This document shows positions 13,750 through 15,473 of a stretch of DNA of 64,000 nt, in pieces; position 1 is the stretch's first letter; every line of letters begins with the position of its first letter. The stretch is taken from NCBI RefSeq assembly GCF_002854065.1, contig NZ_CP024147.1; one strand, 5' to 3'. The notes below the pieces were generated by a model. That model searched no databases. It was not told the DNA's origin and saw only the letters and a list, made by a program, of their open reading frames with translations. Source of the stretch: Escherichia coli. Lineage in GTDB: Bacteria > Pseudomonadota > Gammaproteobacteria > Enterobacterales > Enterobacteriaceae. A program made the position numbers and the translations under genes.

Positions 13750-15072
13750 TTACTTAATACCGTATTCTCGGCTTAACCGACCGTGCAACCTCAACACATT
13801 GGTTTCAACTGCCGTCACCACGTTCTCTGGAAAATCTGTCGGTAATGAAGTCTTCACGTTATCCAGTGCTGCCGGAATCATTCTGGCAAAGTCACTCAGG
13901 ATTTCATGCATCTGCACTTCCGGGAATCTCAGCACCTTTGCTGTCGCCAAAAAATGTCGCGGATAAATTTTATCGATTGCCGTTTTTTTGCCTTTGGATG
14001 CGTTAAGCCCCATTGCCAGTTTGAGATCGCTGATGTGTATTCCCGCGCCACCCAATACCGGAAATGCTGAAATGATGTCGTAAAATGGCGTGAGTCGATA
14101 ACTGCCGCCAGCCTGAATAAATACGGAGAAGTTTTTTGCATGGCCATCCGTTGCGCCAATCAACCACTGAAAGACCTGGAATTTCATAAAATCATAGCGA
14201 TCTTTCAGCGCCTCGCTGGACCCCATCAAAAAAGCCATGATCCGCGCGATGCCTGGGCCTCCATCTGATTCATATTTCACCGATGAAGGTAAACCGAATG
14301 TCTGACACATATCCTCCTGTGGCAAGCGAAGTAAAACCGTTCGCTCAGCATTCCAACGCCTGTCAAAACGTTCGACCGCTAACGCGCGCACATTTCCCGC
14401 TTTAATGATTTCTGCGTCCGGAACATTCAACCCAAGTTCTTTCGCCAGCAGCAGACAGTAATACTCATTATCAACGCTTTGGCTGAGATCGAGCGTCGCA
14501 TTGGGCTGCCTGATTTCCCCAATCGGTAATTTAATGATGTGCGTCGTCGGCGTTATTCCTTTCGGAATGCACCAGTCATTGCCTATTCTGAGCAGTGCTG
14601 TCTTCTCCTGTGCGCCAGCAACCGAGATGCGAAAGTCATTTTCTTCTCTAATCATGCCTAGCGGGATATCTGCTTTATAAGCCGTTAATACTTCTTCAAG
14701 TCTGGCTTCAGTAAGCTTTTCCCATGCCATTATCGGACGCGTTACGGTTTCGTCTTCGGGTATTAACGTCACGGCACCAACGCTGTCTCGCCCTATTTCT
14801 GACAATAAATCAAACGGTTGTCTGGATTTGGCATGATAACGTTTAACGATCCGGTCACGTACAATCGGGCTATCGGGTAACAAGTTATCGAAGAAGTTAA
14901 ATACGGCATCAGAGGTGATATTCCCCCTCTGCAATGGCAGCGAAAGTGACAACGGTCTGGCATAACGGCTGGCTAACCACTCCGGTGCATACTTAAAGGT
15001 GTGCGCGCCGTTGGCTAACTTCGTTAACTCGCCTACCCGCTGGTTGTTCATCCAAGTGACAAGTTTAGGCAT
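13750..15072 (-). CDS. hipA: HipA serine/threonine kinase toxin
   Basis: ORF 13750..15129; 440 aa from MPKLVTWMNNQRVGEL; G22 and D291 are the wild-type residues (not the hipA7 allele). Confidence 0.9.
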   Translation of the reverse strand: MPKLVTWMNNQRVGELTKLANGAHTFKYAPEWLASRYARPLSLSLPLQRGNITSDAVFNFFDNLLPDSPIVRDRIVKRYHAKSRQPFDLLSEIGRDSVGAVTLIPEDETVTRPIMAWEKLTEARLEEVLTAYKADIPLGMIREENDFRISVAGAQEKTALLRIGNDWCIPKGITPTTHIIKLPIGEIRQPNATLDLSQSVDNEYYCLLLAKELGLNVPDAEIIKAGNVRALAVERFDRRWNAERTVLLRLPQEDMCQTFGLPSSVKYESDGGPGIARIMAFLMGSSEALKDRYDFMKFQVFQWLIGATDGHAKNFSVFIQAGGSYRLTPFYDIISAFPVLGGAGIHISDLKLAMGLNASKGKKTAIDKIYPRHFLATAKVLRFPEVQMHEILSDFARMIPAALDNVKTSLPTDFPENVVTAVETNVLRLHGRLSREYGIK

Positions 15073-15338
15073 TACCACTCCAGATCTTGCTGTTCTGTTG
15101 ATTCTGGCGAGGCATTTTTCGTGTCGCATAGTGTCATTGAGAGTTCAAGCGACTGTAAAATCTTAAAAAATGTCGTGAGCGTGGTATTGTCAGGGTTGTT
15201 TTCGAAATTGGAAATCGTCGCCTGCTTAATGCCGATTTTTTTCGCCAGCTCGCTCTGCGTCCAGCCATTTTGCTGGCGAACCAGTTTCATTGCATTCGCT
15301 AATTGCGTTGGGCTATAGATCTTCTGAAAGCTCATCAT
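15072..15338 (-). CDS. hipB: HipB antitoxin (Cro/C1-type HTH)
   Basis: 88 aa from MMSFQK; HTH QSELAKKIGIKQATISNFE; stop overlaps hipA start by 1 bp. Confidence 0.9.
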   Translation of the reverse strand: MMSFQKIYSPTQLANAMKLVRQQNGWTQSELAKKIGIKQATISNFENNPDNTTLTTFFKILQSLELSMTLCDTKNASPESTEQQDLEW

Positions 15339-15359
15339 GTCATACGTCCACAGCAAATT

Positions 15360-15473
15360 TATCCGCTTAAGGGGATATTATCAGTTTTATCCTTTAGTGA
15401 GGATAAAGTCAATCTGGAAACAGATCTTATCCGCTCTACGGGATAAACGCTGCGATATCCGCGATCGCGGATA
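15360..15473. promoter_or_regulatory. hipBA operator array: four TATCC-N8-GGATA palindromes
   Basis: TATCCGCTTAAGGGGATA (15360..15377), TATCCTTTAGTGAGGATA (15388..15405), TATCCGCTCTACGGGATA (15428..15445), TATCCGCGATCGCGGATA (15456..15473). Confidence 0.8.

Follow-up and report, generated by a model that had tools for sequence, protein, structure and literature searches.

Is the hipBA locus in this 64,000-nucleotide stretch of the Escherichia coli chromosome (contig NZ_CP024147.1; the whole stretch is referred to here as the window) an intact toxin-antitoxin operon, and is its toxin, HipA, a wild-type or a high-persistence form? An earlier note on the same DNA had read positions 13750-15473 as a hipBA module, and this identification is supported by matches to PDB, Pfam and NCBIfam as well as by alignment with the K-12 proteins. 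In total, we conclude that the locus is almost certainly the type II toxin-antitoxin operon hipBA in the chromosome of an E. coli lineage: intact, with operators O1-O4 complete, at its native site next to dif, and without a known high-persistence substitution.

Identity and layout of the hipBA operon

The span 13750-15473 extends exactly from the hipA stop codon through the outer end of the fourth operator and contains two genes:

13750-15072, minus strand: hipA, Ser/Thr kinase toxin, 440 aa plus stop codon (PDB match, Pfam domains, residues and codons read)
15072-15338, minus strand: hipB, Xre-type helix-turn-helix (HTH) antitoxin and repressor, 88 aa (identity to PDB 5k98_B, NCBIfam equivalog)

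HipA residues 1-440 align without gaps to residues 1-440 of eight distinct HipA sequences from solved structures (E 1e-294 to 1e-297; PDB chains including 2wiu_A, 3dnt_A and 3tpd_A). The protein contains the Pfam domains Couple_hipA (PF13657; 95.7 bits, cut-off 22.5) and HipA_C (PF07804; 176 bits, cut-off 30.5), and scores 103.5 bits against TIGR03071. HipB is identical to residues 4-91 of PDB 5k98_B, matches the NCBIfam equivalog NF007271 over residues 1-88 of 88 (184.5 bits, cut-off 79) and the Pfam domain HTH_3 with 55.7 bits, and ends in DLEW with W88 present. The alignment with reference HipA and HipB, which the earlier note had proposed as a check, is gapless, and K-12 residue numbering therefore applies directly. 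HipA carries S150, the autophosphorylation site in the Gly-rich loop, as well as D309 and D332, as read from the translation; all three are invariant in the nine E. coli strains compared. Based on the HipA structures, we take D309 and D332 to be catalytic/regulatory residues of the kinase. The role of S150 in HipA autophosphorylation has been described (PMC7758455).

The program-made list of open reading frames (ORFs) gives hipA as a longer 459-aa ORF with an in-frame upstream ATG at 15129. Because the alignments to the solved HipA structures and to K-12 HipA run without gaps from residue 1 to 440, we place the start of hipA at 15072 rather than at 15129. Base 15072 is then common to the TAA stop codon of hipB and the ATG of hipA (TAATG, 15070-15074), and the junction reads ...GAG TGG TAATG CCT AAA..., with the antitoxin gene first and the toxin gene second. 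This shared base confirms the 1-bp overlap claimed earlier and agrees with the overlap of hipB and hipA described for the E. coli operon (PMC3376134). In total, judged by its sequence, the locus shows all testable features that define the HipBA module of E. coli. Toxicity of HipA, its neutralisation by HipB and phosphorylation of GltX at Ser239 would be expected from the 99% identity to the characterised proteins.

HipA at the known high-persistence positions

Codon 22 of hipA is GGC (Gly; 15007-15009), codon 86 is CCG (Pro), codon 88 is GAT (Asp) and codon 291 is GAT (Asp; 14200-14202), and G22, P86, D88 and D291 are invariant in all nine E. coli strains compared. Neither the hipA7 pair G22S and D291A nor the other reported high-persistence changes, P86L and D88N, were found in the HipA of the window. 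In the HipA dimer, the active sites are occluded, and G22S, P86L and D88N make this dimer less stable (PMC7758455). Thus, the codons and the gapless alignment bear out the claim that G22 and D291 are unchanged, and the shifted residue numbering that could have undermined this claim was not seen. The description of HipA as a wild-type toxin is correct as regards the known high-persistence positions G22, P86, D88 and D291; it does not hold in the sense of the K-12 sequence, from which the protein departs by four natural substitutions. Because the four positions are unchanged, a normal rather than a high persister frequency is expected for this allele by analogy with the characterised system.

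The coding sequences differ from those of K-12 MG1655 at 26 of 1589 bases. HipA is identical to K-12 HipA at 436 of 440 residues, the differences being H112R, T343A, S424T and S439I, while HipB differs by A73T and N85D. A high-persistence phenotype could in principle arise from these six changes, two of which lie in the HipB tail that acts as Lon degron: the proteins are not identical to those of K-12, and both HipB changes are located in the C-terminal stretch of 16 residues, which is unstructured and governs degradation by Lon (PMC3376134). Nevertheless, all six variants are common natural polymorphisms. R112 is present in four other strains, A343 in four, I439 in five and T424 in all seven non-K-12 strains, and both HipB variants likewise recur in other E. 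coli strains. Moreover, HipB, in which W88 is kept, has the same sequence as its counterparts in E. coli APEC O78 and E. coli 100416 (annotated WP_001296726.1 in both), the latter having the closest complete genome (NZ_CM128593.1; human stool, Gambia), and no variant falls on a known high-persistence position. We therefore consider it very unlikely that the window carries another high-persistence allele, and retain the reading of an allele without high-persistence character.

HipA is identical to the protein of E. coli ES5 and 100416, annotated there as WP_021574605.1. In comparisons with other E. coli, the ratio of nonsynonymous to synonymous polymorphism (pN/pS) is 0.06-0.13 for hipA and 0.13 for hipB; these ratios indicate that both genes are under purifying selection.

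Operators and regulatory region

The region upstream of hipB contains the following features:

15360-15377: O1, nearest hipB, exact pattern match, TATCCGCTTAAGGGGATA
15377-15382, minus strand: -10-like hexamer GATAAT between O1 and O2, aligned with K-12 and seven other strains
15388-15405: O2, exact pattern match, TATCCTTTAGTGAGGATA
15428-15445: O3, exact pattern match, conserved in nine of nine aligned strains, TATCCGCTCTACGGGATA
15456-15473: O4, most distal from hipB, exact pattern match, conserved in nine of nine aligned strains, TATCCGCGATCGCGGATA
15513-15541, minus strand: hairpin with a 13-bp stem just past the stop codon of the upstream autotransporter gene (RNA fold -22.2 kcal/mol; sequence conserved in K-12)

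The operator consensus TATCC-N8-GGATA is given in PMC3376134 and PMC3920265. Four exact operators are packed within 114 bp upstream of hipB, and the 64-kb window contains five exact sites compared with 0.04 expected by chance, as calculated from 100 dinucleotide-preserving shuffles of the whole window, none of which reached five. The exact pattern search and the shuffles thus uphold the four upstream operators of the earlier note. Because the published O1O2 oligonucleotide (PMC3376134) matches window positions 15359-15406, with which it is identical save for one base, we assign O1 to the site nearest hipB and O4 to the most distal one. The fifth palindrome, at 28357-28374, lies inside lsrK and is present in 100416; as it is absent from lsrK of ES5 and A10, it was rejected as an additional HipB target and is probably due to chance.

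All eight operator half-sites are invariant in the nine-strain alignment. The start-to-start spacings of the operators are 28, 40 and 28 bp in the window compared with 28, 39 and 28 bp in K-12, which, along with one other strain, is missing a T ahead of O2. In the same alignment, K-12 has TATAAT at the position where the window and seven other strains have GATAAT. This hexamer is preceded by TG and can be read as a putative extended -10 element, TGaTAATAT. K-12 alone contains ~13 extra bases upstream of O4 holding an IHF-like core, CATCAACGCCTTA, which is absent from the window (15474-15500) and the seven other strains. Relative to the majority form, the window differs by one base in a 92-bp core; this base, the C of GATCTG, belongs to the O2-O3 spacer and is shared with 100416.

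Nothing was found that speaks against this reading of the operon, and two points on its regulation deserve mention. First, a consensus scan of 13500-15700 gave no canonical sigma-70 -35/-10 pair, and for this reason the position of the promoter is assigned by homology to K-12; TTGACT (15407-15412) was considered as a -35 partner of GATAAT and rejected since the 24 bp between the two is too far. Second, the regulatory region departs from that of K-12 in four ways, i.e. GATAAT, the 40-bp O2-O3 spacing, the lack of the IHF-like core and one lineage-specific base in the O2-O3 spacer. Because of these differences, the expression level could differ from that in K-12. From the alignment, it is the K-12 regulatory region that appears to be atypical among the nine strains, and the form in the window appears to be the common E. 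coli one. It is conceivable, but on balance rather unlikely, that the regulatory variant (GATAAT or, in the alternative reading, an extended -10 element; 40-bp O2-O3 spacing; no IHF-like core) alters the set-point of hipBA expression and, hence, the basal persister frequency relative to the K-12 promoter. If so, the K-12 promoter, on which all hipBA biochemistry is based, would not be a typical reference where the regulation of hipBA is concerned.

The hairpin at 15513-15541 is probably the terminator of the autotransporter gene and, as such, would insulate the hipBA promoter.

The -10-like hexamer GATAAT in place of the perfect TATAAT of K-12, together with the decay of the surroundings (two deletions in the fimbrial operon, an autotransporter gene split by IS1, a frameshifted lsrA and a YdeO that has lost its last six residues), might suggest that the module is itself a decaying relic, which looks intact and, like its degraded neighbours, is non-functional or silent. 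This is most improbable given that both ORFs are full length with every checked catalytic or regulatory residue present, that pN/pS is ~0.1, that other E. coli have the very same HipA and HipB, and that all eight operator half-sites are exact. Moreover, GATAAT and the 40-bp spacing represent the usual state in E. coli, from which K-12 deviates. Thus, the reading of an intact operon is kept.

IS1 copies and dif

Three features define the segment in which hipBA is located:

5530-6297, minus strand: IS1 copy A, 768 bp, with the 9-bp target duplication GTGTTGTCC, at the 3' end of ydeO
13639-13666, minus strand: dif, the XerCD dimer-resolution site, exact match at 28 of 28 positions with 0 expected by chance, GGTGCGCATAATGTATATTATGTTAAAT
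20454-21221, minus strand: IS1 copy B, 768 bp, with the 9-bp target duplication AACCGTCCC, inside an ECSE_1600-family autotransporter gene (yneO homologue)

The two IS1 copies are identical, in direct orientation and spaced 14,924 bp start to start, and flank hipBA as the earlier note had stated. Because each copy has its own 9-bp duplication, they represent two independent simple insertions rather than a composite transposon; because both copies keep these duplications, no recombination between them has taken place here. By this evidence, copies A and B are independent later insertions into ydeO and the neighbouring autotransporter gene. That the 14-kb block between these identical, directly oriented copies is a composite transposon that brought hipBA to this site has virtually no likelihood, as the duplications differ, the outer flanks of the two copies do not match each other, neither a single outer target duplication nor a non-native location was found, the standard E. 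coli terminus gene order is seen inside and outside of the bracket, including the K-12-like adjacency of hipA and dif, and 100416, the closest relative, has the same genes without an IS1 at ydeO.

Homologous recombination between the IS1 copies could delete 14.9 kb. The label "deletion-prone" given to this segment earlier is thus plausible as a mechanistic inference and is not an observation. The bracketed segment includes dif, at a distance of 83 bp downstream from the stop codon of hipA. Loss of dif impairs chromosome dimer resolution. Since the segment contains dif, deletants arising by IS1-IS1 recombination should be counter-selected, and the presence of dif argues against easy loss of the segment. 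Moreover, the exact dif implies that the window spans the replication terminus. dif adjoins hipA also in K-12, ES5, APEC O78, WP7 and CUVET, and the terminus region next to dif is the native home of the hipBA locus. On the plus strand, the GC skew falls from a slight positive to a negative value in the region of ~6 to 10 kb, in rough agreement with a terminus.

At ydeO, the C-terminal six residues of YdeO, an acid-response regulator (6276-7037, minus strand), have become VMLPTY instead of MSALAI owing to IS1 copy A. The fused protein stays at 253 aa by coincidence and is recorded only in the draft assembly GCA_035821435.1.

Neighbouring genes and the relative 100416

The gene order ydeP, fimbrial genes, hipA, hipB, autotransporter and lsr is as in E. 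coli chromosomes. At the DNA level, 100416 and the window agree to 99.97% at window positions 13653-19329 and to 99.9% at 46000-64000. In a search with the hipBA region, no complete E. coli genome exceeded 99.4% identity over 2.4 kb, whereas 100416 reaches 99.9-99.97% in the parts that it shares with the window. By contrast to the window, 100416 has no IS1 at ydeO; one IS1 joins the equivalents of window positions 19329 and 27907, and ~7.8 kb around the position of IS1 copy B, on the autotransporter/lsrK side, is missing. hipBA and dif are kept in 100416, and this junction therefore documents that IS1-associated loss of DNA occurs next to hipBA while sparing it. Also unlike the window, 100416 has a filamentous prophage in two tandem copies, the integration site being exactly dif. 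This prophage (13778-24092 of one matched locus and 1-7852 of another) has genes for a replication endonuclease, a Zot-domain protein and a GspD-like secretin, and the match between the window and 100416 ends at 13653, inside dif.

Compared with ES5, two internal deletions (at 11783/11784 and 13426; ~1,981 bp and ~1,774 bp) have affected the ydeQRST-like chaperone-usher fimbrial operon: usher and chaperone persist as fragments and the gene for the major subunit is lost. The annotation of 100416 shows similar remnants. On the other side of hipBA, the ECSE_1600-family autotransporter gene, a homologue of the K-12 pseudogene yneO, occupies 15549-20453 and 21222-21746, being split by IS1 copy B, and its C-terminal part is a 1623-aa ORF.

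Between the 5' end of the autotransporter gene and lsrK is a Tn3-family (TnAs1-like) transposon (21840-27479; 5,640 bp) with 38-bp terminal inverted repeats that are 92% complementary, a TGTAT(T) target duplication and a GC content of 0.57-0.62. It carries genes for a methyl-accepting chemotaxis protein (22029-23606), a resolvase (23916-24476) and a transposase (24480-27446), and the same element is found elsewhere, in tam, in E. coli A10. Within lsrK, 136 bp of the window (28619-28754) are missing from 100416, in which lsrK is annotated as shorter. lsrA, the gene for the ATPase of the autoinducer-2 (AI-2) ATP-binding cassette (ABC) transporter (30796-32330), is broken up into two ORFs that overlap (30796-31602 and 31596-32330), as would be expected from a frameshift, and is likewise annotated as frameshifted in 100416.

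Proposed mechanism and significance

From the 99% identity to the characterised K-12 system, the following mechanism can be proposed for the locus in the window. HipB dimers, together with HipA as the co-repressor, would occupy the four operators in a cooperative manner and thereby shut off the operon, and HipB would also keep HipA inactive. Degradation of HipB by Lon, via the unstructured C-terminal tail, would free HipA (operators and Lon degradation: PMC3376134; also PMC3920265). Free HipA would then phosphorylate glutamyl-tRNA synthetase (GltX) at Ser239, and uncharged tRNA-Glu would act through RelA to raise (p)ppGpp, the tetraphosphate and pentaphosphate of guanosine, leading to growth arrest and a small fraction of antibiotic-tolerant cells (GltX phosphorylation and (p)ppGpp: PMC6581861). 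Finally, autophosphorylation of Ser150 would turn HipA off again (Ser150 and HipA dimerisation: PMC7758455).

This is a known system with a known allele, i.e. a textbook toxin-antitoxin module with protein sequences that recur in other complete E. coli genomes. Its value is for annotation: hipBA is intact and wild type at the known high-persistence positions, and for this latter reason no hipA-based heritable multidrug tolerance is predicted for the strain. Two points are of modest additional value: dif is inside the IS1-bracketed segment, and the regulatory region of K-12 is unlike the common E. coli form.

Comparison with known systems

Distant modules of the HipA family, i.e. Shewanella HipBA (4PU3) and the HipBST systems of E. 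coli O127 and Legionella, have the HipA_C kinase fold and an Xre-type antitoxin in common with the locus in the window. The similarity is remote, with E-values of 5e-30 and 3e-07 compared with ~1e-296 for E. coli HipA, and HipBST is a split system of three genes. On account of these E-values and the three-gene architecture, assignment of the locus to Shewanella-type HipBA or to HipBST was rejected.

hipA7 and the other high-persistence alleles (G22S and D291A; P86L; D88N) concern the same gene with the same residue numbering and are distinguished from the allele in the window by these four substitutions, all of which are lacking from its HipA.

The K-12 MG1655 operon (b1507/b1508; HipA structures 3DNT, 3FBR and 2WIU; HipA-HipB-DNA structure 3DNV) differs from that in the window by four HipA and two HipB residues, TATAAT, the 39-bp O2-O3 spacing and ~13 bp more upstream of O4. 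It matches in gene order, in the lengths of 440 and 88 aa and in the 1-bp overlap, has the same four TATCC-N8-GGATA operators with 28-bp O1-O2 and O3-O4 spacing and the same catalytic and autophosphorylation residues, and is similarly adjacent to dif and to autotransporter and fimbrial genes. ES5 has a HipA identical to that in the window and a different HipB, which carries S53. The closest counterpart is the hipBA locus of 100416, in which HipA, HipB and the 92-bp regulatory stretch from O1 to O3 are all 100% identical to those in the window.

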